Positions 27,968 to 39,120 of a stretch of DNA of 64,000 nucleotides are shown piece after piece. The number at the start of each line of letters is the position of its first letter. The stretch's first letter is position 1. The stretch comes from an uncultured Actinomycetota bacterium (GTDB lineage: Bacteria > Actinomycetota > Actinomycetes > UBA12327). Location: assembly GCA_963850215.1 (NCBI GenBank), contig CAWKKI010000006.1, positions 5,535-69,534 of the forward strand, in the 5' to 3' direction. The notes below the pieces were generated by a model that had not been told where the DNA came from, did no database searches, and saw nothing but the letters and a program-made list of their open reading frames with translations. The position numbers and the translations under genes were made by a program.

Positions 27968-28001
27968 GACCGTCAGCGTATCGACGAGCGAGAATGCAGT
28001 C

Positions 28002-28781
28002 ATGGGTGAGCCGTGGGGTCAGCGCGACTTCGGCGTTCGTTTCGACTGGGGCAGTGCAGGGGCGGATGCGATCGTTGCTGCGAACACGATCGCGGTTGTC
28101 GTCGATGTCTTGTCGTTCACCACCACGTTGTCAGTGGCCTTAGACCGGGATGTGAGCGTCATCCCCTACCGCTGGAACGACGCAGACGGTGCGCAGGAGT
28201 TGGCTGACCGTCGCGGTGCGACACTGGCACGGCCGCGCTCGAGGGCAGTCGCGGGCGAGGCCAGCCTGTCGCCGATGTCTATTCGCTCCGTCGCCTCGTT
28301 GAGCCGACTCGTACTCCCGTCGCCCAACGGCTCAGCGCTCGCCCACCAGATCGCGCAAGACGACAGCAACGGCTGCGTGGGCGCGAGTCTGCGCAATGCG
28401 CGAGCGGTAGCCAGGTGGATCGTCGATCAAGTCGATGACTCCTCCGGTACGGCAGCCGCTACCCGGTCGGTGGCAGTAGTCGCAGCCGGGGAGCGGTGGC
28501 CCGATGGGTCGCTGCGGCCTGCGGTCGAGGACCTGTGGGGTGGGGGAGGTCTGATCTGCGCGCTCAAGGCGTTGGGTTTCGATGACGTCTCGCCGGAAGC
28601 CGAATCGGCCGCCGTCGCATACGAGGCTGCAAGTGGTGACATCGGCTCGATGTTGCGTGAATGCGCAAGTGGTCGTGAATTGATCGAGTCGGGCTTCGGA
28701 TCGGATGTCGAAATTGCCGCCGAGGTCGATGAGAGCACGGTCGTCCCGCTGCTCGTCGATGGTGAGTTCGTCCGCGCCTGA
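28002..28781 (+). CDS. 2-phosphosulfolactate phosphatase (ComB-like) family protein
   Basis: VVVDVLSFTT, LPSPNGS, SLRNA, AAGERW and RPAVEDLWG motifs. Confidence 0.85.
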   Translation: MGEPWGQRDFGVRFDWGSAGADAIVAANTIAVVVDVLSFTTTLSVALDRDVSVIPYRWNDADGAQELADRRGATLARPRSRAVAGEASLSPMSIRSVASLSRLVLPSPNGSALAHQIAQDDSNGCVGASLRNARAVARWIVDQVDDSSGTAAATRSVAVVAAGERWPDGSLRPAVEDLWGGGGLICALKALGFDDVSPEAESAAVAYEAASGDIGSMLRECASGRELIESGFGSDVEIAAEVDESTVVPLLVDGEFVRA

Positions 28782-28797
28782 TGGCAGGCTGATCGGC

Positions 28798-29574
28798 ATG
28801 TGCGGGCGTTATGCGGCAAGTCGAAGCGCAGACTCGTTGGCTCTTGAGTTCGAAGCCGTCGACGCGAGCAACGGTGGCGTCCCAGCCGACTACAACGTCG
28901 CACCAACCAAACCGGTGCTTGCAGTGCTGGAGCGGGCGCACGACGACGATCCGCCGACCCGACAGATCCGGGTGCTGCGTTGGGGCTTGGTGCCGTCGTG
29001 GGCCAAGGATCCTTCGATCGGCAGCAGACTCGTCAACGCACGCCTCGAGACCGCCGCAGAGAAGCCGGCATTTCGCAAGGCGTTCGCCCAACGGCGTTGT
29101 CTGCTGCCCGCTGATGGCTACTACGAGTGGTACACCCCGGGTAGCGACGCGGTCGCCGATGGGCCTCGCCCGAGCAAGGGCAAGCCCATGAAACAGCCCT
29201 ATTTCATTCACCCGACCGATGGGGCGGTGCTCGCGATGGCCGGGCTTTATGAGTTCTGGCGCGATCCAGGGCGAGATCGCGAAGACCCAGAGGCATGGCT
29301 GACGACGATGACTGTGCTCACGACCACCGCAACAGACGATCTTGGTCGTATCCACGATCGCGCGCCGCTTCTGGTCGAGCCCGAGGGTTGGGGCCGCTGG
29401 CTAGATCCCCGTGTGACCGACGTTTCGTCCTTGTCCGATCTGCTGGTTCCCGCGGCCCCGGGCCGCCTGGACGCATATCCCGTGTCCACTTTGGTCAACA
29501 ACGTCCGGAACAACGGACCGGAATTGCTCGAGCGAAGCAACGGAATGAGCCGTCACATACCCGTGTTGGCATAG
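28798..29574 (+). CDS. SOS response-associated peptidase (SRAP/HMCES-YedK abasic-site protein)
   Basis: N-terminal MCGRY, YNVAPT, WGLVPSW, NARLET, GYYEW and IHDR motifs. Confidence 0.95.
29542..29568 (+). promoter_or_regulatory. SigR/SigH-type promoter (autoregulatory)
   Basis: GGAAT-N18-GTTG, matching the known SigR/SigH consensus, directly upstream of sigR. Confidence 0.8.
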
Positions 29575-29657
29575 TCATGCTCGTTGCGGAGGCCCCCGGA
29601 GCCACGTCGATGTTCCAGGTCAGCGGGGGACCCAGTCTCCCGTTACGCTCGACTCCA

Positions 29658-30260
29658 ATGAGTGTTGACGCGGTGATCGAAACCCCTGAAGAGCGTGCAG
29701 CCCGCTTCGAGCGGGATGCGCTGCCCTTCCTCGACCAGCTCTACTCAGCGGCCCTGCGCATGACCCGCAATCCCGCTGACGCTGAGGACCTGGTCCAGGA
29801 GACCTTCGTGAAGGCGTTCGCCGCCTTCCACCAGTTCAGGACGGCACGAACCTCAAGGCGTGGCTGTACCGGATCCTGACCAACACCTTCATCAACACCT
29901 ACCGCAAGAAGCAGCGCGAGCCGCAGCTGTCGGCGGGCGAGGATGTCGAGGACTGGCAGCTCGCGCGTGCGGAAGTCGCACACATCGACGGGACTGCGCT
30001 CGGCTGAGGCCGAGGCGCTTGATCATCTGCCCGACTCCGACGTCAAAGAGGCGCTGCAGCAGATCCCTGAGGACTTCCGGATGGCTGTGTACCTGGCCGA
30101 CGTCGAGGGCTTCTCCTACAAGGAGATTGCCGACATCATGGGTACGCCAATCGGTACCGTGATGTCTCGACTGCACCGCGGTCGCCGTCAGTTGCGCGAA
30201 CTGCTTGAGGACTACGCGCGTGAGCGCGGCCTCGTACCGGCCGGCGAGGGTGAGAGATGA
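29658..30260 (+). CDS. sigR: ECF sigma factor SigR/SigH (two compensating frameshifts)
   Basis: [33 protein letters not shown]...[34 protein letters not shown]. Followed by a ZAS anti-sigma gene. Confidence 0.93.
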
Positions 30261-30543
30261 GTTGCGGTAAGCCGCACGCGACGGACTGCTCGGACGTGAT
30301 CGAGCGGGTCTACCTGTACCTCGACGGCGAGGCAGATGACTTTGATTGCTCGCGCATCCGCGAGCACCTCGATGAGTGCAGTCCTTGCCTTGCTCAGTAC
30401 GGGCTTGAGCAAGAGGTGAAGACACTCGTGCCCGCTCCTGCGGAAGCGACGATGTGCCTGAGGATCTACGTGTCCGAGTCATGGCTCGCTTGACCGAGGT
30501 GCGGGTCGAGATCACCCGGACGGAGTTCCGCGTCGAGGGCTGA
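30257..30543 (+). CDS. rsrA: Mycothiol-system zinc anti-sigma factor RsrA/RshA (frameshift near 30430)
   Basis: [11 protein letters not shown]...YLYLDGE...HLDECSPC (HxxxCxxC motif). Confidence 0.9.
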
Positions 30544-30578
30544 GTCCTCGGCCCGCTCAATGCTGCGTCCGCTAAATG

Positions 30579-30610
30579 AAGAAGCCCAACGCTTATGCGT
30601 TGGGCTTCTT
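30579..30610. terminator. 14-bp perfect hairpin, probable bidirectional terminator between convergent rsrA and bL37
   Basis: AAGAAGCCCAACGC-TTAT-GCGTTGGGCTTCTT. Confidence 0.7.
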
Positions 30611-30667
30611 GCCGTGGTTGGCGCCGTTCTTCTTGCGGCCGCGGCGCTTACGTGCGCGCTTGCTCAT
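30593..30667 (-). CDS. 50S ribosomal protein bL37 (24 aa, below the ORF-track cut-off)
   Basis: Translates to MSKRARKRRGRKKNGANHGKKPNA; GGAGG RBS upstream; sits next to rsrA/rshA as in other actinobacteria. Confidence 0.9.
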   Translation of the reverse strand: MSKRARKRRGRKKNGANHGKKPNA

Positions 30668-30733
30668 GTTGCCTCCAGTACGAGGAGGTAAGTCTCGCAC
30701 AGGTTGGCGCGTGTGCCCGAATCGGCGGAACGA

Positions 30734-31390
30734 TCAGCCGGAGAGGCGGCGGTTCAGAGCGTCGAGCACCGATCGTGCGACCGCGTCAGCCTCGTCGCCG
30801 CGGACCAGTGCGCTGCCTGTGACCACCTGTTCGCCCAGCCGCGGCACCATCACGGACAGGATCGTGAGCGCGACTTCGCGCTGACCCAGGGCTACCACCG
30901 CTGCAGATTCCACCTCGGCGGTGGTGCCAAGAAGCTCGGCGACGGCCGTCAGAGTCGCCTGGGCTACCAATCGTGCCCGCTGGCTCGGTGCGCCGGGCCC
31001 GAGGACCTTGCCCTCGAAGACGCTGCCGCCGGCGGCAACGGTGACCGTCGCCTCGGACTCCTGGCCGCTGGTGCGCAACATGATGGATGCGATGGCGGGC
31101 CGAGGTGCAGCCTCGTCCTCGTCGTCATCTTCGTTGAGGATGACTTCAGGCACGTCTTCGTTGTCGAACTGCACGACGCTGACGATCCGGTGATCGATGT
31201 CGATGTCGAAGCGGGCCATCGCAAGCGACTGAACATCGCGAACGAGCTGCTTGGCAGGCTTGCCGGGTGAGGCCAGGACATGGATTTCGGTTGGCGTGCC
31301 ATCCGGTCCGGTAACGACGCTGGCCGCACGGATGCCCTGTACTTGGCGCAGCGCGTCCTCAAGTTCGGGAAGCAGGCGCAGGGTAGGCAT
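30734..31390 (-). CDS. Uncharacterised two-domain protein
   Basis: 218-aa ORF with protein-like composition: IHVLA..KQLVRDVQS..DIDHRIVSVVQ domain, acidic linker, alpha/beta C-terminal domain. Confidence 0.8.
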   Translation of the reverse strand: MPTLRLLPELEDALRQVQGIRAASVVTGPDGTPTEIHVLASPGKPAKQLVRDVQSLAMARFDIDIDHRIVSVVQFDNEDVPEVILNEDDDEDEAAPRPAIASIMLRTSGQESEATVTVAAGGSVFEGKVLGPGAPSQRARLVAQATLTAVAELLGTTAEVESAAVVALGQREVALTILSVMVPRLGEQVVTGSALVRGDEADAVARSVLDALNRRLSG

Positions 31391-31498
31391 CGAGGGGCTC
31401 CGCGTGTTCGTTGCTCGGTCGTGTCGTTGCTCGGGTGTGCCAGTGGTCGTGCCGTGGTCGTGCCTGTGACTTAGGCGCGCCCACTGCGCGCCTGCTGC

Positions 31499-31972
31499 CT
31501 AGTCTGGCCGAGGCAACTGGGTGAGACCGGCAACCAGGGTGCGGTGTCGCGCTGTTCTTGGCGCACTTTCAGGTGACCTTGGCGCCTCGGAGTCTTCGTC
31601 GGCATCACTCTCGGGTCCCGACCCGCTCGCCGAATGCAGGGTCAGATCGAGGACGTTGGACGTTCGCTGCGACTGCTCCCAGGCACGAGCGCTTGCGCTC
31701 ACGGACTCCTCGGCCTGCTCGGCGGCCTCGTCCAACGAGGCGATGGCCGCCGGAATCACCGTGCGAACGTGCTCGGTCACCGTGCGCAGGCTTTCGCGCT
31801 GCCACCAGCGCAGGAGCCGGGCGGTGGCGGCATCAATCCGGCCGGCAGCCTCAGCCGCCTCGAGTTCTGCGTCGAATCTGGCCGTGGCCGGGTCCGCCCG
31901 CGCGTCAAGCAGCCCTGCGACGAGGTCGGCAAGAGCCGCCTCGCGGGATGGACGTGAGGGAGACATCGTCAC
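31499..31972 (-). CDS. Hypothetical helical protein
   Basis: 157-aa ORF with an ARLLRWWQRES core and a low-complexity tail. Co-oriented with 30734..31390. Confidence 0.65.
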   Translation of the reverse strand: MTMSPSRPSREAALADLVAGLLDARADPATARFDAELEAAEAAGRIDAATARLLRWWQRESLRTVTEHVRTVIPAAIASLDEAAEQAEESVSASARAWEQSQRTSNVLDLTLHSASGSGPESDADEDSEAPRSPESAPRTARHRTLVAGLTQLPRPD

Positions 31973-32286
31973 TCAGGGTATGGGGTGGGTCTTCCCATCG
32001 AGGAAGACGTGGTCTGGTTACGCCGTTCGGGTCAAATGCCCATTTCGCCGCATGACCAGACCGGCCGGGCGCAATTCGCCGATTACAACGGGTAACTGAC
32101 CCGAAAGGGCTACCGTCAGAGGCCAAAGGGGTCGAATTCGGAGGTCTCCACCCACGTGGCGGTACTTGACGCCACCCTGTGTCCCATCCTTCACTTGCGT
32201 TCGGTGCCTGCCCTGCCGATGGGTACGAAACGGTCACTCATCGGATGGTCGCTGCTAACGCAGTGCGGACACCCTAAAACTGCACA

Positions 32287-32536
32287 GAGTGCGAGACGGG
32301 GATCGGCAGCCTTGGTTGGTTGTTGATCAGTTTCGGAGCGGACAACGGACGCCCCGAAGCACATGTAACTCCTTAGCGGAGCGGAATTACGCGCGGGTCT
32401 TAGCGGTACCCGTGACGTGAATCCACTGGAGTGATGTCCCAAATGAGCAAGCTCGTAAGCCTTGTCGAACGCGCTTTCACGGCCCCTGTTGGCATCTGGC
32501 GCTAGTGCCTAGGCTGCCGATCCCCGTCTCGCACTC
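32287..32536 (+). repeat. Perfect 26-bp inverted repeat enclosing 198 bp (candidate structured leader or ncRNA)
   Basis: GAGTGCGAGACGGGGATCGGCAGCCT (32287-32312) is the exact reverse complement of AGGCTGCCGATCCCCGTCTCGCACTC (32511-32536). Confidence 0.9.
32443..32505 (+). CDS. Unannotated 20-aa small ORF MSKLVSLVERAFTAPVGIWR
   Basis: ATG 32443 (alternative in-frame ATG 32434), GGAG at 32428-32431, TAG 32503-32505. Immediately upstream of the HD-GYP gene. Confidence 0.6.
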   Translation: MSKLVSLVERAFTAPVGIWR

Positions 32537-32557
32537 CTTGCCTTCCCCTGCAGGAGT

Positions 32558-33895
32558 GTGATGCGCGGCATGCCCTGGTCAGCGCGCGCGTATGTCACTG
32601 TGCTCGCGGTGATCGCGCTTGCGATCAACGCTGTCGCGGTCGGTCGTGTGCACCAGTGGTGGCCTGTTGCGGCTTTCGCTGTGCTTTACCTAGCGGCGCA
32701 CGTCATGCAGGTTTCGGCTGCGGGCCGAAGTGGCAGCAAGCTGTACCTCACTGTTAGCGAGCCTGTAGCGCTTGCCGCCTGCATCGCCCTTGGGCCCTGG
32801 GCGGCCGCGATCGTGGTGTCCATTTCGATCTTGGACTGGCATCCGGCGCCACTGAAGCGTCTGTTTAACGCGAGTCAGGCGGTGATTTTCACCGTGGCCG
32901 CCGGTGCCATGTACAACGCCCTTGGTGGGCCGCACGTGCTCACACCCAAGTCATTTCCGTCGGTGCTTCTGCCCACGCTCATCTCCGGTCTGACACTCGT
33001 CCTCGTCAATGCGATCCTCGTGGGCCTCGTGCTCGTTCTGGCGGAGGGGGCACGCCCGCTCGCGGTTATCCGTGACACGGTGTATCGACTTCCGGTTCCT
33101 GGCATCGCCTTCAGCCTGTTCGGCCTCCTCATCGCGGTCCTGTGGCAGGAGGTCGGTGTCGTCGCGCTGGCTCTGGTCCTGGTCCCGCTGCTCGCCGCGC
33201 GTTGGGCCATGGGTCAGTTCGCCGCGGAGCGCGACGCATACCAGTCAACGATTCGTTCGCTCGTGCAGGCGGTCGAGACCAAGGACGCCTACACGCGTGG
33301 TCACAGCGAACGAGTCGCCCGCGCGTCGGTGATGATCGCGCAAGTCATCGGGATGGATGACGACCGGACCAACGCAATCGAGTATGCGGGCACGCTGCAC
33401 GACGTCGGCAAGCTTGGGGTGCCAACGTCGGTCCTGCAGAAAACGGGCTCGCTCACAGACGAAGAATTCGCGGCGATCAAGTTGCACCCGGTTCGTGGAC
33501 ACGACATCGTGCGCGACATCCAGTTCCTCGATGAAGCACTCGAAGGCATCTACCACCACCACGAACGCATCGATGGCCGCGGCTATCCGATGGGCCTTAC
33601 CGGCGACCAGATCCCGGAGTTCGCCCGAGTGATCGCCGTCGCGGACGCCTTCGACTCCATGACCTCGACTCGTTCGTATCGCGGTGCGCGCACCATCGCG
33701 GACGCGATCGTTGAGCTTGATAGCTGCAAGGACACACAGTTCGATCCGGTGATGGTTGACGCGTTGGTGCTCGCGGTCGAGGCGACCGGATGGAACGCGG
33801 CTGTCGCCCCCACCGAGGCAGAGATTGCCGCTCAGAACGAACGATTCGCCGTCGACGACGACGACCCACTCCTCGATCTGAGGGCGGCGCAGTGA
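32558..33895 (+). CDS. Membrane-bound HD-GYP domain c-di-GMP phosphodiesterase
   Basis: Multi-TM N-terminus; KDAYTRGHSERV, LHDVGK, HPVRG, HHHERIDGRGYP and ADAFDSMTSTRSYR, all intact. Confidence 0.92.
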   Translation: MMRGMPWSARAYVTVLAVIALAINAVAVGRVHQWWPVAAFAVLYLAAHVMQVSAAGRSGSKLYLTVSEPVALAACIALGPWAAAIVVSISILDWHPAPLKRLFNASQAVIFTVAAGAMYNALGGPHVLTPKSFPSVLLPTLISGLTLVLVNAILVGLVLVLAEGARPLAVIRDTVYRLPVPGIAFSLFGLLIAVLWQEVGVVALALVLVPLLAARWAMGQFAAERDAYQSTIRSLVQAVETKDAYTRGHSERVARASVMIAQVIGMDDDRTNAIEYAGTLHDVGKLGVPTSVLQKTGSLTDEEFAAIKLHPVRGHDIVRDIQFLDEALEGIYHHHERIDGRGYPMGLTGDQIPEFARVIAVADAFDSMTSTRSYRGARTIADAIVELDSCKDTQFDPVMVDALVLAVEATGWNAAVAPTEAEIAAQNERFAVDDDDPLLDLRAAQ

Positions 33896-35184
33896 GCGCC
33901 ACGACCGCAGCGCCGAGGTTCGACGACCCAGGCTCGCGCGGCGTCTTCGTTGTCGGTGCCATTGCGGCGGTCCTGACCACCGCGTCGGTCGCCGCGATTG
34001 TGGTGCAGGGCTCACCCGACGTTGCTTGCGCTCTCGCGTTTTCCGCCTTCGTGGCCGTCGGCCAGTTCATGGCCTTGACCCTGCCGGGCGAGCGCGAAGT
34101 TGCTCCGGTCGCCATGGCCGCAGGTCTCGCCTTTGCGTTGGCTACCAACTTCGCTGGTCGACCACTTCACTACCAGGCCTATGAGGTCACGGCCTTTTTC
34201 GCGATCGCATCGTTGTTGGGCGTGCTTCCGCGGGTCTTCGTGGGCAGGACCCCTCGCATCGACGCGCTGTCCATCCGAGTCATCACGGTTGCCGTCACGG
34301 CATCGGCGTTTCGCGGCAGTCGAATCCATGCCGCCGTGGACCGGCTAAGTCCGACCGCTCTGGCCCTGTTCATGGTCTCGCTCGTGATCTGCGCGCTTCT
34401 CTTCGAAGCCGCGCTGTCGGCGGCGATTCGGGTCGGCTATACCCGCGCCCCCTATGTCCAGACCCTGAGTGACGGTTTGCGAGCCAGCTTTGGAATCGGA
34501 TCCGCGACCGGGTCCATCGCAGTGCTGATCGCCTTGTCGACCGGCGTGATGGGGTTCTGGTCGTTGCTCATCTTCTGTATTCCGCTGCTGCTTCTGCAGG
34601 TCTCGTTCAAGCGCTACGCATCGATTCGCGCGACCTACCGGCAGACGATCGGTGCTCTCGCCCGAGTAACCGAAGTCGGCGGCTACACCGAGAACGGCCA
34701 CTCGCGCCGGGTTTGCGACCTCTCGCTCACGGTGGGTCGCGAGCTGGGCATGTCCGAGGCGGACCTGCTCGATCTTGAGTACGCGGCGCTCATGCACGAC
34801 ATCGGGCAGATCTCGCTGAAGGAGCCGATCCCGGGTGGCGTTACCGTCACTGCGTCCTGGGAGGCGCAGCGCCGGATCGCCGAACTCGGTGCAACGGTCA
34901 TCAAGGAGACCGGCGTTCTCGATCGCGTTGCCGCGATCGTAGAGCGGCAGTCCGACCCCTACCGTCGACCGGGCCAGCAGGTCGATGAGACCCTTCCGCT
35001 GGCCGCGCGCATCATCAAGGTGGTCAATGCATTTGACGACCTCGTTGGCGGATCGGCCGACAGCGGACCACGCCTAGACGCGCTCGAACGACTTCGGATG
35101 GGCATGGCGTACGACTTCGACCCGCGGGTCGTCGAGGTATTGACCCGCGTGGTCGACCGCAACTTGCTGCTCAGCTCGGTCTGA
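33892..35184 (+). CDS. Membrane-bound degenerate HD-GYP-like protein
   Basis: Multi-TM N-terminus; GHSRRV and MHDIGQ are present, but HHE...GYP is replaced by ERQSDPY. GTG start overlaps the upstream TGA. Confidence 0.85.
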   Translation: MSATTAAPRFDDPGSRGVFVVGAIAAVLTTASVAAIVVQGSPDVACALAFSAFVAVGQFMALTLPGEREVAPVAMAAGLAFALATNFAGRPLHYQAYEVTAFFAIASLLGVLPRVFVGRTPRIDALSIRVITVAVTASAFRGSRIHAAVDRLSPTALALFMVSLVICALLFEAALSAAIRVGYTRAPYVQTLSDGLRASFGIGSATGSIAVLIALSTGVMGFWSLLIFCIPLLLLQVSFKRYASIRATYRQTIGALARVTEVGGYTENGHSRRVCDLSLTVGRELGMSEADLLDLEYAALMHDIGQISLKEPIPGGVTVTASWEAQRRIAELGATVIKETGVLDRVAAIVERQSDPYRRPGQQVDETLPLAARIIKVVNAFDDLVGGSADSGPRLDALERLRMGMAYDFDPRVVEVLTRVVDRNLLLSSV

Positions 35185-35259
35185 GGCAGGGACGCGGGGT
35201 CCTCGCGTGGTTTGATGGCGCTCACCCCCTTGTGATGGGTCCCACGAAGGAGAGCGCCA

Positions 35260-35475
35260 GTGGCCGAGGAGATCCACGCCGAGATGGTGGCGAACATCGC
35301 CAAGGTTGTCGTCGCGCCAGGTGATGCGGTCGAGGTCGGCGGCACTGTCGTGATCCTTGAATCCATGAAGATGGAGATCCCCGTCCTGGCCGAGAGTGGG
35401 GGGACTGTGCGCGAAGTGGCGGTCGCAGAAGGGGACGTTGTCCAGGAAGGCGACCTGCTCGTCGTCATCGACTAG
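35260..35475 (+). CDS. Stand-alone biotin/lipoyl carrier protein
   Basis: 71 aa with an ILESMKMEIPV biotinylation motif. Confidence 0.92.
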   Translation: MAEEIHAEMVANIAKVVVAPGDAVEVGGTVVILESMKMEIPVLAESGGTVREVAVAEGDVVQEGDLLVVID

Positions 35476-35510
35476 TAAAGATCCGGCTCTTTGGAGCCGA
35501 CATTCACCCG

Positions 35511-36602
35511 GTGAGCGCAGCCCCCGTGAGCTCAGTTGAGCCGTTCTTGCGTGCCCTGGTGGAGACCGGTGGCTCGGACCTGCACTGCAAGGTGGGCTCC
35601 CCGCCTCGCGTCCGGCTCGACGGTCGCCTGCGCAAGCTGCAGGCCGCATCGCTGACCCCGGTCGACACCGAGTCGATGGTCAACGAGGTCCTGCGCGAGG
35701 ACCTGCGTGAGGACTTCCTGCGGACCAACGAAGCCGACTTCGCCTACTCCATTCCGGGAGTGGGCCGCTTCCGCGTCAACGCCTTCCGCTCCCGTGGGGC
35801 GGCCGGTCTGGTCTTCCGGCGGGTCAGCATCGGCGCTATCCCGCTCGAAGACCTTGGCATGCCCCCGGTGTTGCAGTCGCTGGCCATGGAGCCACGCGGA
35901 CTGGTTCTCGTTACCGGTCCCACCGGATCGGGCAAGAGCACGACGCTTGCTGGCATGGTCGACTACATCAACAAGCACCGCGAGGTGCACATCGTCACCA
36001 TCGAAGACCCCATCGAGGTCATCCACGAAGACCAGATGTCGATGGTCAATCAGCGCGAGGTGCGGGTCGACACCGCGGACTTCGCGGTCGCACTACGTGC
36101 CGCGATGCGCCAAGACCCCGATGTCGTGCTCGTCGGCGAAATGCGCGATGCCGAGACCGTCAAGGCGGCGCTTGCCGCCGCGGAGACCGGCCACTTCGTC
36201 ATGTCGACTCTGCACACCACCGACGCGGAAGAGACCGTCAACCGCATCATCGACTTCTTCGCACCGCATGAGCAGAAGCAGGTGCGGATGGCACTCGCCG
36301 GCTCGCTGCGCGGCATCATCTGCCAGCGCCTTGTGCCACGCGCGGACCAGCTCGGTCGATGTGTCGCTACCGAGATCGCCATCAACACTGGTCGAGTGGC
36401 CGACGCCATCGTCGACCCCGACAAGACCTCGACCATCAACGAACTGATCCAAGAGGGCACGTTCTACGGGATGCAGACTTTCGACCAGCACCTCGTCGCA
36501 CTCATCCGCGACGGCGTCATCACTCTCGATGACGCCATGTTGGCCTCGACAAACCCGCACGACCTCACCGTCGAGCTCCGTCGCCTTGGCCTCGTCGCGT
36601 AG
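35511..36602 (+). CDS. pilT: Type IV pilus retraction ATPase PilT/PilU family
   Basis: GSDLH, GRFRVN, GPTGSGKSTT, TIEDPIE, RQDPDVVLVGEMRD, AETGH..STLH and GMQTFDQ motifs. Confidence 0.9.
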   Translation: MSAAPVSSVEPFLRALVETGGSDLHCKVGSPPRVRLDGRLRKLQAASLTPVDTESMVNEVLREDLREDFLRTNEADFAYSIPGVGRFRVNAFRSRGAAGLVFRRVSIGAIPLEDLGMPPVLQSLAMEPRGLVLVTGPTGSGKSTTLAGMVDYINKHREVHIVTIEDPIEVIHEDQMSMVNQREVRVDTADFAVALRAAMRQDPDVVLVGEMRDAETVKAALAAAETGHFVMSTLHTTDAEETVNRIIDFFAPHEQKQVRMALAGSLRGIICQRLVPRADQLGRCVATEIAINTGRVADAIVDPDKTSTINELIQEGTFYGMQTFDQHLVALIRDGVITLDDAMLASTNPHDLTVELRRLGLVA

Positions 36603-36623
36603 CGCTCACGTCTAACGCGCCCC

Positions 36624-36818
36624 CTACGGGCCGTCGATCTCTCCATGCTCGACGCACCGCGCGGTCCAACTGCCTGGTGTCACCTGGACCACCATTCGAC
36701 GCCCGCACTGGACGCAGTAGCGGGGTGGCTCAAGGTCGCGCGCCGCGATGCACCGGCTGTGATCAGCCGTCGCGTCATCGATGAATGACTTCCCGCAGCG
36801 GTCGCAGTAGTCGCCCAT
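36624..36818 (-). CDS. bsaP: Biotin synthase auxiliary protein BsaP-like (Cys/His-rich)
   Basis: [24 protein letters not shown] motif, downstream of bioB. Confidence 0.75.
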
Positions 36819-36849
36819 CACGCGAGGCGGTCAAGGCCGGGGCCAGTCA

Positions 36850-37386
36850 TCACAGCGCCAGACGCCAAGCGAGCAGATCCGTGCCCGGAACCGGACTCCA
36901 GTCGCGCTCCGGCAGCCGTTCGAACCCCATCCGCCGATAGAGGCGCTCTGCGGTGTCGTTGCCAGCGATCACGCTGATGACGAGGGCATGCGATCCGCGT
37001 TCGCGCGAACGAGTAATGCATGCCTCCACCAACGACTGCCCGACACCGCGACCCTGCGCTTTCGGATCGACGGCCAACATCCGAAACTCGGCCTCACTGC
37101 CCTCGGCGAGCTCGGTCATGGGGGAGCCGGGGAAGGTCAGGCGCACGGTGCCGATGACCTCGTCATCGGGCTCCACTGCGACCAGCACCTCTGCGATCTC
37201 GGCGTGCGATGCGGCATCGCGCAGGTAGTTCCCGTAGTCGGGATCGGTGCCGAGCACGTTGGAATCGGCGTAGGCCGCATACGTCAACTCGCCAGCCCGC
37301 GCGAGATCCTGCGGCTGCGCGATGCGGATCACCACATCGGGATCGCTCACAGCGTGTGTCTCGCTCATAGGGTTCGGATCGCTCAC
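36850..37386 (-). CDS. GNAT acetyltransferase
   Basis: [17 protein letters not shown] acetyl-CoA motif, A.RLYRRMGF. Confidence 0.9.
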
Positions 37387-38420
37387 AGCGTCTGAGACAG
37401 TGCCTTGACCGGCATCGCCAGATCACCGAGCAGCGCGAGGTCATCGGTCGCCGGGCGGCCGAGTGTCGTGAGGTAGTTGCCCACGATCACTGCGTTGATG
37501 CCGCCCAGCAGGCCGCCCCGAGTGCCCAGGTCGCCAAGAGTGATCTCACGACCACCTGCGAATCGCAGGATCGTTCGCGGCATGGCGAGCCGGAAGGCCG
37601 CGATCGTCCGCAGCGCGTCCTGGGCGTCCATGACCGGCAGCTCTCCGAACGGTGTGCCTGGACGAGGGTTGAGGAAGTTCAGCGGCACTTCGTGCGGCTG
37701 TAGGTCGGCGAGTTGCGCCGCGAACTCGGCGCGTTGCTCGACGGACTCGCCCATGCCGACGATGCCGCCGCAACAGACTTCCATGCCGGCGTCGCGCACC
37801 ATGGCGAGCGTCTCGTGTCGCTCCTCCCACGTGTGGGTCGTCACGACTTCGGGAAAGTAGGAGCGCGCCGTCTCGAGGTTGTGGTTGTAACGATGCACAC
37901 CCATGTCGGCGAGTGCATCCACTTGCTCCTGGGTGAGGATGCCGAGGGATGCGGCAACATTGATGGACACGGCCTCGTTGATCGCGGCGACCGCCTCGCG
38001 CATCTGCGTCATCAAGCGCTCGTCTGGCCCGCGCACGGCTGCGACGATGCAGAACTCGGTAGCACCGGTTGAGGCCGTCTCAATGGCCGCCGAGACGAGC
38101 GAAGGAATGTCCAGCCATGCGGCGCGAACGGGCGAGGTGAACTGACCCGACTGCGAACAGAAGTGGCAGTCCTCGGGGCAGCCGCCGGTCTTCACCGACA
38201 CGATGCCCTCGACCTCGACCTCTGGGCCGCACCACCGCATCCGCACCTCGTGCGCGAGCTGCAGCAGCGCGTCTAGTGAGTCGTCAGGGATCTGCAGGGC
38301 TTCGATCAGCGCGGCCTCGTCGAGGCCCACGCCTTGCTCAAGGACACGTTCGCGCGCATATGCGAGCAGGTCCTCTGGCGAGCGGCTATTGGACTTGATC
38401 TGCTCAGGAGCGGTGGTCAC
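37383..38420 (-). CDS. bioB: Biotin synthase
   Basis: [11 protein letters not shown] radical-SAM motif, [17 protein letters not shown] and VPLNFL. Start GTG 38420. Confidence 0.96.
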
Positions 38421-39120
38421 GGATGAAGTCTGCCGCATCGAACGAGCCGCCAAGGGAGCCGTCGACCCAGCCGATAGCGTGGCGACGGAAGGCAGCCTGG
38501 TCGAGTTGTCCGGCGCCTTCGGGAAGCACGCCGACAATCCGGGCGCCAATTCGGCTGATGTCGATGAGGTTGGACCGCTCAGCCAGGCCGGGTTCGCGTG
38601 GCCACGAGCCGATGACGACTCCTGCGCAGGTGACTTCGGCGGCGGCCAGAGCCTCAAGCGTTAACGCGATGTCGTTGAGAGTCCCGAGGGCAGCAAGGGC
38701 GACAACGAGGACCGGCCAGTCAAGGGCGGCCGCAAGTTCGCGCATCGACCAGACCGGGTCGTCGGCGAGGCGGACCAGGAGTCCCCCGGCACCTTCAACC
38801 AGCACATGATCGACATCGTTGGCAGTGGCGGCGAGCCGATCGGTGCAATCGGCGAGACCGAGTGTTGGCATGCCTGCGCGGCGCGCTGCGCTCGCGGGAG
38901 CCAACGGATCGGGGTACCTGACGTACTCATCAATTCGATCGACACCAGCCAGCTCACGAACGACGTCAAGGTCGCCGCGCTCATGTGGCTGAAGTCCGGT
39001 CTGCGCTGGCTTGACGACACAGACCGAATCTCCACGTGCGCTCCACGCGGCCGCGACCGCTGCAGTGGCGATGGTCTTGCCGATCTCGGTTCCCGTCCCG
39101 GACACAATGAGTCCGCTCAT
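38404..39120 (-). CDS. bioD: Dethiobiotin synthase
   Basis: [22 protein letters not shown] and LGTLN motifs. Confidence 0.95.

Follow-up and report, generated by a model that had tools for sequence, protein, structure and literature searches.

The 64,000-nt stretch analyzed here (contig CAWKKI010000006.1 of an uncultured Actinomycetota bacterium; hereafter the window, whose numbering is used throughout) carries two adjacent genes for HD-GYP proteins, HD-GYP1 and HD-GYP2, and, directly 5′ of them on the same strand, a small open reading frame (sORF). This sORF, or mini-gene, occupies positions 32443..32505 of the + strand and consists of 20 codons followed by TAG (32503-32505), with the predicted peptide MSKLVSLVERAFTAPVGIWR. 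An initial annotation, made from the letters of the window alone, had noticed the sORF and had taken it for the precursor of a signaling peptide or for an attenuator leader peptide; it had missed the 34-nt inverted repeat (arms 91% complementary, flanking a 192-nt segment) that brackets it. The two arms are predicted to pair as a long-range helix, P1, which encloses an inner domain (helix P3, the junction AGCGGAGCGGA, and hairpin P2) and the mini-gene.

The mini-gene leader is predicted to be a structured RNA of roughly 270 nt (about 32275-32556). The mini-gene itself is genuine and conserved, and it is built into the leader. Our preferred reading, to which we give about an even chance, is that it is the first cistron of the HD-GYP1-HD-GYP2 transcript and acts together with the leader as a leader-peptide RNA switch for the HD-GYP pair. 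That the mini-gene is translated and that HD-GYP expression is regulated through it we infer from sequence. Leader and peptide are undescribed: they match no Rfam, Pfam, or NCBIfam family, and no paper on them was found in a literature search that fell short of most subscription journals and of supplements.

Coding signature and distribution of the mini-gene

Two sets of loci were used. For the protein-anchored set, 41 related genomes were searched with the HD-GYP1 protein alone, and 27 matched at E up to 1e-20. Six-frame translation of the upstream 450 nt placed an sORF with a similar Trp-ending peptide at the same position in 15 of 18 orthologous loci. RNA motifs were not seen in three of the protein-anchored loci (L013, L015, and L020), and 13 loci, selected without any RNA pattern, make up alignment A1. 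Two genomes are unpublished: one (G037, locus L017) provides 1 of the 13 A1 rows and the other (G020, locus L013) was inspected only; both are included in the genome tallies, and no claim is based on them alone. For the pattern set, a motif drawn from the protein-anchored alignment matched 105 stretches in a species-level genome collection, of which 80 were fetched. The pattern set was aligned with MAFFT (alignment A2), in which the invariance of the pattern columns follows from the construction of the search pattern.

Nearly all pattern loci came from metagenome-assembled genomes (MAGs) of Actinomycetota/Actinomycetes (Frankiaceae, Sporichthyaceae, Nanopelagicales, and Motilibacteraceae), together with one Acidothermaceae isolate with a complete genome (L055). 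A Trp-ending sORF was found in 74 of the 80, and an HD-GYP orthologue followed on the same strand in 72 (3 of the remaining 8 end at a contig edge). A 75th sORF (L028) is a copy frameshifted by 1 nt: in this MAG record an indel in the 1601-1641 region puts the ...AAWKW-stop ending in the next frame, which would reflect either a long-read assembly error or a decayed copy. Five pattern matches with neither sORF nor HD-GYP gene, in Bacteroides, Chromatiales, Gemmatimonadota, Bryobacterales, and Nonomuraea records, were rejected as chance matches.

A covariance model of the inner domain (R1) was run on 151 genomes sampled from the class; 54 of them carry the element, as do 40 of the 119 of high quality. 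Each carrier has a single element, apart from G121, where two contigs gave one hit each. The distribution was all-or-none by family, with hits in 18 families. It always lay 5′ of an HD-GYP orthologue and of no other gene family. Among the 30 covariance-model loci that were fetched, 28 showed the sORF, both P1 cores, and HD-GYP downstream; one was cut by a contig end and one was missed by the anchor. The HD-GYP1 orthologue itself was present in 75 of the 151 genomes; thus, 21 genomes have the gene without a model hit. The window's genome holds one copy (the search matched only the locus itself and its two arms), which speaks against a miniature inverted-repeat transposable element (MITE) or other repeat element.

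Two further in-frame starts are available to the mini-gene, ATG 32434 (MSQ..., 23 aa, MSQMSKLVSLVERAFTAPVGIWR) and GTG 32431 (24 aa, the version in the open reading frame list). The preferred start, ATG 32443, is homologous to the family ATG in A2 and lies 7 nt 3′ of the Shine-Dalgarno (SD) sequence GGAGTGAT (32428..32435, + strand), which doubles as the 3′ strand of P3; on these grounds the 20-aa call is judged better than the longer versions. An SD of the GGGGTGAT or GGAGTGAT type preceded the start in 61 of 74 members by a simple motif test in which some starts were mis-picked. The reading frame and its MSQ alternative read exactly as in the initial annotation, and the likeness that it saw between the ribosome-binding contexts of the mini-gene (GGAGTGATG, 32428-32436) and of HD-GYP1 (GGAGTGTGATG, 32553-32563) was confirmed at the sequence level.

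By itself the size of the mini-gene is within chance (152 open reading frames, or ORFs, of at least 20 aa overlap 28000-38000), and 32100-32520 is flat and GC-poorer in the GC frame plot, with a noncoding look at that resolution. The mini-gene is counted as real because it is conserved. Indels within the sORF came in multiples of three in the protein-anchored loci. In 55 unique sequences of 20-21 codons, entropies at codon positions 1, 2, and 3 were 0.74, 0.61, and 1.05, and the ratio of nonsynonymous to synonymous change (pN/pS) was 0.57 in frame vs. 1.17 and 1.08 in the shifted frames. These values indicate that the peptide is under selection at the amino-acid level, and the check on conservation and synonymous substitution that the initial annotation had proposed came out in favor of the ORF, which was kept in 74 of 80 pattern loci at this pN/pS. 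Stop codons were used about equally in the 74 members (TGA 26, TAA 25, TAG 23), and the base following the stop codon showed no bias.

The family consensus peptide is approximately MKKIVSAVEQFLQSGAxWxW. Trp-x-Trp was found in 54 of 74 members, and the last Trp was the final (23) or penultimate (48) residue in 71 of 71 unique sORFs; it is thus at a fixed distance from the stop. The window copy is a divergent member with a single Trp, whose codon (32497..32499, + strand) is penultimate, in keeping with the family-wide position of the last Trp at -1 or -2. An exact-match search with 10 family peptides, including both window versions, against approximately 15 billion predicted proteins returned none (0 of 10), so that "unannotated", the initial label, was apt. 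Pfam and NCBIfam gave no family match for the peptide at E up to 10, and hence no named leader-peptide family. The proposal of a secreted signaling-peptide precursor found no support: the N-terminus of the main peptide class is not signal-peptide-like, neither Pfam nor NCBIfam has a matching family, and genes for modification or export were not recognized alongside.

Helices and alternative pairings of the leader

Conservation starts abruptly at the 5′ boundary block TAAAACTG (32275..32282, + strand; family consensus tGACAACTG): in 72 unique loci, information content was near zero 5′ of the block and high from the block onward. The left arm of P1 (L; 32282..32315, + strand) pairs at long range with the right arm (R; 32508..32541, + strand), which is pyrimidine- and C-rich. 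Between L and the inner domain lies a variable region (32316..32366, + strand), which differs by locus in its local hairpins and in its length (approximately 10 to 100 nt) and is not alignable across loci.

RNAalifold on A1 gave P1, of approximately 20 pairs, and hairpin P2; of the 31 predicted pairs in all, 17 showed compensatory changes. P1 had 20 pairs, 12 with double-sided changes (95.7% of cells paired), and P2 had 6-8 pairs, 5 of them compensatory (97.4% of cells paired). The structure-pair count was made after small dubious pairs had been removed; 17 of 26 pairs had changes on both sides, vs. 7.4 in the control (standard deviation, sd, 1.7). Overall, 96.1% of A1 cells were paired, compared with 81.5% in shuffles and 38-47% with slid partners, and the covariation score was 0.508 vs. 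0.211 in the control. None of 500 shuffles reached the observed value on any of five measures.

Approximately 25 consecutive P1 pairs were seen in an anchored ungapped table of 70 unique loci (positions 0-26), which was used instead of whole-flank duplex folding, because the latter over-extended the helix (mean of 57 "pairs", with equal energies for the + and - strands). The table contained 1656 Watson-Crick, 81 G.U, 26 A.C, and 127 other cells, most of the last being a conserved C.C at position 12 and a conserved C.U at position 18. Because G.U far exceeds A.C, P1 is read as an RNA helix on the + strand and not as a DNA repeat. With its 25 bp, P1 is predicted to close the entire leader, with the mini-gene inside. 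Its top 12 pairs are nearly invariant in sequence, and pairing alone does not explain such invariance. The window leader (32272-32580) folds to -141.9 kcal/mol (z = -5.16), with P1 and P2 both in the minimum-energy structure. An Rfam scan of 30000-35000 with permissive filters gave no match at E up to 1, c-di-GMP-I and c-di-GMP-II riboswitches included.

The inner domain begins with the anti-SD tract ACUCC (32368..32372, + strand), the pyrimidine tract just 5′ of the invariant AGCGGAGCGGA; it is the 5′ strand of P3 and is complementary to the mini-gene SD. P3 was tested by duplex energies, because RNAalifold on A2 gave only P2 and MAFFT loses the P3 register. Same-locus duplexes averaged -10.93 kcal/mol vs. 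-9.30 kcal/mol (sd 0.29) for mismatched loci, a difference reached by 0 of 200 permutations (66 unique loci). Because same-locus duplexes were better than mismatched-locus duplexes, the mini-gene SD appears to be sequestered by a covarying strand. The junction AGCGGAGCGGA (32375..32385, + strand), itself containing an SD-like GGAG, is invariant in 13 of 13 A1 loci. The P2 hairpin (32390..32417, + strand) has a bulged A (32415) and a loop with UAGCGG (32401-32406). There are 24 invariant columns, mostly at junction and loop positions, and the pattern columns are invariant in the 13 A1 rows also. Conserved helices with invariant junction and loop nucleotides over an SD, as seen in P2, P3, and AGCGGAGCGGA, are a riboswitch-like trait.

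Short words recur in the element. GAUC occurs four times in the consensus (P1 left arm, junction GCGGAUC, sORF codons 3-5 as AAG AUC G, and P1 right arm), of which the window retains only the two P1 copies (32301-32304 and 32519-32522). The left arm and the P2 loop also share the word AGCGG, which the junction contains twice.

The top of the P1 left arm, 5′-UCGGCAGC, is complementary to a segment of the sORF, 5′-GCUGUCGA in the family, that corresponds to codons 7-9. In the window this segment, R′ (UUGUCGA; 32462..32468, + strand), can form 7 contiguous pairs with the left arm. At least 8 contiguous pairs were possible in 47 of 68 sORFs, vs. 15.3% of 1320 length-matched HD-GYP coding windows, and for 40 of the 69 unique loci the best duplex between left arm and sORF had its start at ORF nt 16-17. 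The energy of this duplex (-23.65) was not reached by any of 100 sets of codon-shuffled ORFs (-21.34, sd 0.34). Codon choice showed the same trend. Ala codon 7 was GCU in 35 of 47 cases, whereas GCU makes up 8% of the 2337 Ala codons of the neighboring HD-GYP genes; Val codon 8 was GUC or GUU in 51 of 53 cases and GUG in 1 of 53, compared with a background of 41% for GUG. The favored bases of codons 7 and 8 are those required for pairing between L and R′. The left arm is thus predicted to have two alternative, mutually exclusive partners, R′ within the ORF and R after it.

Four metatranscriptome runs from four studies yielded one contig each (156-241 nt, 92-97% identical to the window), starting at 32314, 32315, 32333, and 32336 and ending at 32480, 32485, 32499, and 32571; such contigs cannot give strand, ends, or level. 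Because of this identity, they are taken to come from close relatives. The upstream flank had no contig cover, and the HD-GYP body had a single 40-nt piece; missing cover proves nothing by itself. In contig X9, the relative's sORF differs from that of the window by two synonymous changes (ACG to ACU and CCU to CCA), two conservative ones (V to I and R to K), and the stop (TAG to TAA). The contigs hint weakly at the presence of the leader as RNA, and X9 adds a further case of coding-type substitution. Two contigs from two studies (X11 and X6) begin at 32314 and 32315, at the apical end of the left strand of P1; these starts could be due to chance or to a processing site in the long helix.

The HD-GYP genes, their surroundings, and loci without a model hit

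The sORF stop and the right core of P1 were 4-51 nt apart (median of approximately 14). P1 is followed by a linker (32542..32556, + strand) with a CUUCCCC tract (32542-32548) and the HD-GYP1 SD, AGGAG (32552-32556). Across loci, HD-GYP1 starts approximately 18-35 nt past the base of P1 and is preceded by a GGAG-type SD and, frequently, a CUUCCCC tract. R and the linker together (50 nt) average 41% C and 26% G. No U-tract follows P1. A TTGACA lies within the boundary block without a matching -10 at 17 nt. In the window, R can pair with the HD-GYP SD (pairing I4); across loci this pairing was better only than that with shuffled SD regions (1/200).

The HD-GYP1 ORF runs from GTG 32558 (32558..33895, + strand), with ATG 32561 as the likely start, with which the N-terminal M-R-x-L-P aligns. 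The protein combines a membrane MASE9 sensor (2.7e-07) with an HD-GYP domain (HD_5, 5.1e-39; HD, 1.4e-16). The HD-GYP2 ORF (33790..35184, + strand; HD_5, 2.9e-12) encodes a paralogue that is approximately 25% identical to HD-GYP1 in the HD domain; its true start is probably nearer the HD-GYP1 stop. All 18 loci checked have HD-GYP2 after HD-GYP1 (two of them truncated at the locus end). To our knowledge, HD-GYP enzymes with MASE9 sensors are almost unstudied. According to the accessible text of 10.1101/2021.11.05.467447, experiments have dealt with only one of them, HdgA of Streptomyces venezuelae, which is described there as poorly expressed.

Upstream regions were fetched from 17 of the 21 genomes that have the gene without a model hit; L175 provided only 50 nt, and G016, G020, and G146 were left out. 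Families are referred to here by number. Both f41 loci carry MSKLVSAIETFLSRSEDWRWT, and the single f44 locus carries MKRIRTLVERFLMSNAETHWR. Two of three f46 loci carry MGKLRSVLEQFLSAGSTAKWE and a second ORF ending in NWKWG, and the third has a short ORF ending in NWKWA. In the first two (L165 and L173), the two Trp-ending mini-genes stand in tandem (MGKLRSVLEQFLSAGSTAKWE, then the ORF ending in ENWKWG), 100-230 nt before HD-GYP1. The f53 locus has an ORF with a similar N-terminus that is extended. All six f3 loci have Trp-ending ORFs, most of them hydrophobic, with ends GWTWW, GWSWW, GWCWW, or GISWT. None of the four f28 loci has a convincing candidate; the lone Trp-ending ORF there extends into the upstream gene and is no more than chance would give. 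In these families the covariance model matched only in f41, weakly (16.9 bits) and without P2. Because the peptide persists where the RNA structure does not, the Trp-ending mini-gene appears to be older and more general than the P1/P2 leader.

Upstream of the leader, the window contains an interrupted gene for an extracytoplasmic function (ECF)-type sigma factor (29694-30493 region). Its Sigma70_r2 ORF (29295-29879) and Sigma70_r4 ORF (29943-30260) are in one frame, separated by a stop and a stretch that reads out of frame, and are followed by a zf-HC2 anti-sigma ORF (30257-30493). These ORFs look like a SigR/RsrA-type pair; the interruption would be either an assembly error or a decayed gene. 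In four f28 loci (L163, L167, L172, and L178; genomes of 7.5-9.2 Mb), the HD-GYP pair lies directly 3′ of an ORF reading ...KKLVKRCCG.DDVPTDLRAKVMGR..., which is presumably RsrA-like. Because f28 has this neighbor without a Trp-ending mini-gene, the sigma/anti-sigma neighborhood of the HD-GYP pair seems older than the leader. The 1.5 kb (approximately) from 30560 to 32100 holds long ORFs on both strands, 30734-31390 (-), 31499-31972 (-), 30704-31270 (+), and 31521-32099 (+), without a Pfam match at E up to 0.001, and the GC frame plot is compatible with both. Past the HD-GYP pair come a T2SSE-family ATPase (35511-36602, +), a GNAT acetyltransferase (36850-37386, -), and a radical-SAM/BATS protein (37383-38657, -).

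Proposed mechanism, rival explanations, and known systems

A switch of the following kind would fit the arrangement. The inner domain would set how often the mini-gene is translated, through a ligand, a protein, or plain folding, and the position of the ribosome on the mini-gene would then decide between L:R′ and L:R. A ribosome on codons 3-14 would cover R′ and let P1 form, and one dwelling at the Trp-x-stop end would leave R′ free for L, with the C-rich right arm single-stranded. The choice would set HD-GYP expression by one of three routes, among which the data do not discriminate: loading of Rho onto the free C-rich arm, processing of P1 by an RNase III-type enzyme, or access to the HD-GYP start. 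The attenuator leader peptide of the initial annotation is partly retained here: the covarying leader, the sequestered SD, and the mimicry of the P1 arm speak for it, whereas a terminator with a U-tract is absent and the genes are not amino-acid biosynthesis genes.

Several observations weigh against such a switch. With a spacing of 4-51 nt between stop and P1, a terminating ribosome would miss P1 in many loci. No intrinsic terminator was found, the one terminator-like hit, inside the P1 left arm, being at chance level (0.8 expected); likewise, no sigma-70-like promoter, no conserved block 5′ of tGACAACTG, and no RNA 5′ end was identified. Pairing of R with the HD-GYP SD did not covary (-16.2, vs. 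-15.9 between loci; 40 of 200 permutations gave an equal or lower value; 42 loci). The L:R′ duplex was no better within loci than between loci (-23.65 vs. -24.10), so there is no covariation; because both partners are nearly invariant, the case for L:R′ rests on the synonymous-site bias. The RNA contigs may stem from DNA contamination of the RNA libraries, and their runs had been retrieved by conserved words. In 12 of 13 loci of f3, f41, f44, f46, and f53, a Trp-ending ORF stands upstream of the gene without P1, P2, and AGCGG motifs, and in ten of the loci without a model hit the best enclosing helix had 12-17 pairs vs. 12-14 in shuffles (maximum 14-22); only two f46 loci exceeded their shuffles, by one pair, and the same procedure gave 29 pairs vs. 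13.9 (maximum 17) for the window. The peptide is thus independent of this RNA. Finally, residues 2-17 of the 20-21-aa class form a strongly amphipathic helix (helical moment of 1.49 vs. 0.70 in shuffled peptides, sd 0.35), which a leader acting only in cis would not need.

The last two points are what a trans-acting peptide would predict. The mini-gene could encode a micropeptide, an amphipathic helix that in some lineages spans the membrane, with a Trp anchor at its end, that binds or modulates the MASE9 sensor of HD-GYP1, much as small membrane proteins act on sensor kinases, the leader only setting its dose; we regard this as the main rival, less likely than the switch but serious. The persistence of the Trp-ending ORF in those 12 loci, the helical moment, and the amino-acid-level selection all suit a micropeptide, as do transmembrane (TM)-like versions, found in 5 of 58 unique pattern-set peptides and in the f3 peptides (best 15-aa hydropathy of 1.8-2.6); the HD-GYP survey, in the part accessible to us, argues that the MASE9 ligand is bound within the membrane (10.1101/2021.11.05.467447). 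Complex prediction for the 35-aa f3 peptide and its cognate HD-GYP1 (residues 1-228) gave a score of 0.02 (mark 0.32), which speaks neither for nor against binding. The main 20-21-aa class is amphipathic, with a grand average of hydropathy (GRAVY) of about 0. However, amphipathic and TM-like versions are physically unlike each other, and the peptide belongs to no known Pfam or NCBIfam family. The length of a free peptide's tail should drift, whereas the stop falls 0 or 1 codon past the last Trp in 71 of 71 sORFs, which a termination event explains more easily; the synonymous-site constraint and the L/R′/R arrangement tie the ORF to RNA refolding. Because of the fixed stop in the pattern set and the use of synonymous sites by the RNA, the cis reading was weighed above the trans peptide. 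The two are compatible, and one ORF could act both ways.

The inner domain might instead be the functional unit, either a riboswitch aptamer or a protein-binding site, with the ORF as its expression platform or as an incidental feature. Riboswitches for cyclic di-GMP (c-di-GMP) before HD-GYP, EAL, and GGDEF genes are a known theme, and the 24 invariant columns concentrated in junction and loop, the sequestration of the SD by a covarying strand, and the closing helix P1 are all as expected of an aptamer. We nonetheless consider this reading improbable: the coding signature, variable stops, and frame-keeping indels of the ORF are not those of an incidental feature, other families have the peptide without the RNA domain, the element occurs once per genome and 5′ of a single gene family, and no Rfam match was obtained at E up to 1. 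A combination of the two ideas, a two-stage sensor, seems unlikely, if somewhat less so than the aptamer by itself. In it, the inner domain would be a new ligand-binding RNA class that gates the mini-gene, its ligand perhaps a nucleotide messenger handled by HD-GYP enzymes, and the Trp-ending nascent peptide would act at termination to toggle the 25-bp helix; the released amphipathic peptide could also be an intramembrane partner of the MASE9 sensor. Long-range 5′-3′ pairing and SD sequestration further recall the folding control of the aapA1 mRNA of Helicobacter pylori, as far as the accessible parts of PMC5416894 and PMC6733600 describe it, and hydrophobic peptides occur in some lineages. 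Nevertheless, a type I toxin-like module, with a small membrane-active peptide and a locked mRNA, is very improbable. The main peptide class is not hydrophobic, no antisense RNA was seen (none was searched for), and the single-copy element, syntenic with the HD-GYP pair and inherited by family, is unlike mobile and patchy toxin-antitoxin loci. That the 34-nt repeat around 192 nt acts as DNA, as a MITE or an invertible promoter segment with the ORF as a by-product, has a negligible probability in view of the single genome copy, the strand-specific pairing seen in the excess of G.U (81) over A.C (26), and compensatory changes across families at a fixed syntenic site; no recombinase was recognized among the scanned neighbors.

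Returning to the leader-peptide switch, 18 sampled families of Actinomycetes carry a dedicated leader, with a covarying helix, an SD-sequestering domain, and a selected mini-gene, before the HD-GYP pair. If the switch is real, it would mean postinitiation control of c-di-GMP-type signaling in mostly uncultured soil and freshwater actinomycetes. If the trans peptide is real, it would be a first micropeptide partner of a c-di-GMP phosphodiesterase, and a two-stage sensor would place an RNA aptamer and an arrest peptide in series in the control of c-di-GMP turnover. The locus also illustrates that ORFs below the cut-offs of gene callers can be the best-conserved part of a locus.

Among known systems, the leader most readily invites comparison with those controlled by upstream ORFs (uORFs). 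In the uORF systems described in the accessible text of PMC12360218, a ribosome held on the last uORF codon shields an adjacent Rho utilization (Rut) site. Like tnaC (of tnaCAB), speFL, and cruR, as presented there, the mini-gene is a short uORF with a conserved peptide followed by a C-rich stretch, and the critical event would be at or near the stop. Its peptide has no sequence relation to TnaC or to the other named leaders, has its Trp at -1 or -2, and uses all three stops. Also unlike the tnaC type, the ORF lies inside a 25-bp helix with an SD-sequestering domain on its 5′ side, the genes presumed to be regulated encode signaling enzymes, and stalling and Rho are only proposed. As in the trp, his, and ilv attenuators, the leader ORF overlaps one of two mutually exclusive pairings (PMC1262725 and, for the Corynebacterium ilvB uORF, PMC10272879, in their accessible parts). 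Trp-x-Trp in 54 of 74 members is likewise reminiscent of classical attenuators, but only one Trp is present in the window copy, a terminator hairpin with a U-tract and a codon run for a regulated pathway are both absent, and the downstream genes are HD-GYP genes. The mgtA leader with mgtL, in the account accessible in PMC12360218, is similar in that folding of a structured leader controls a small uORF, which then restructures the leader and changes downstream expression; here, there is no known ligand and no Rfam match, and the architecture is different.

For products acting in trans, the rnTrpL/peTrpL system of Sinorhizobium meliloti offers a parallel in the accessible text of PMC7968998: the leader could yield a stable small RNA and a leader peptide, and the contigs here cover the leader alone. 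Unlike there, a trans function of RNA or peptide is only hypothetical here. MgrB and SafA are small membrane-protein modulators of PhoQ. They resemble the mini-gene product in being encoded by a tiny gene co-oriented beside a membrane sensor and in having a helix with a Trp at the likely membrane interface; unlike them, most members here are amphipathic and not membrane-spanning, and binding to the sensor is only hypothetical. Set beside these systems, the leader, if it is indeed a switch, would represent a new architecture among the few uORF-based switches.

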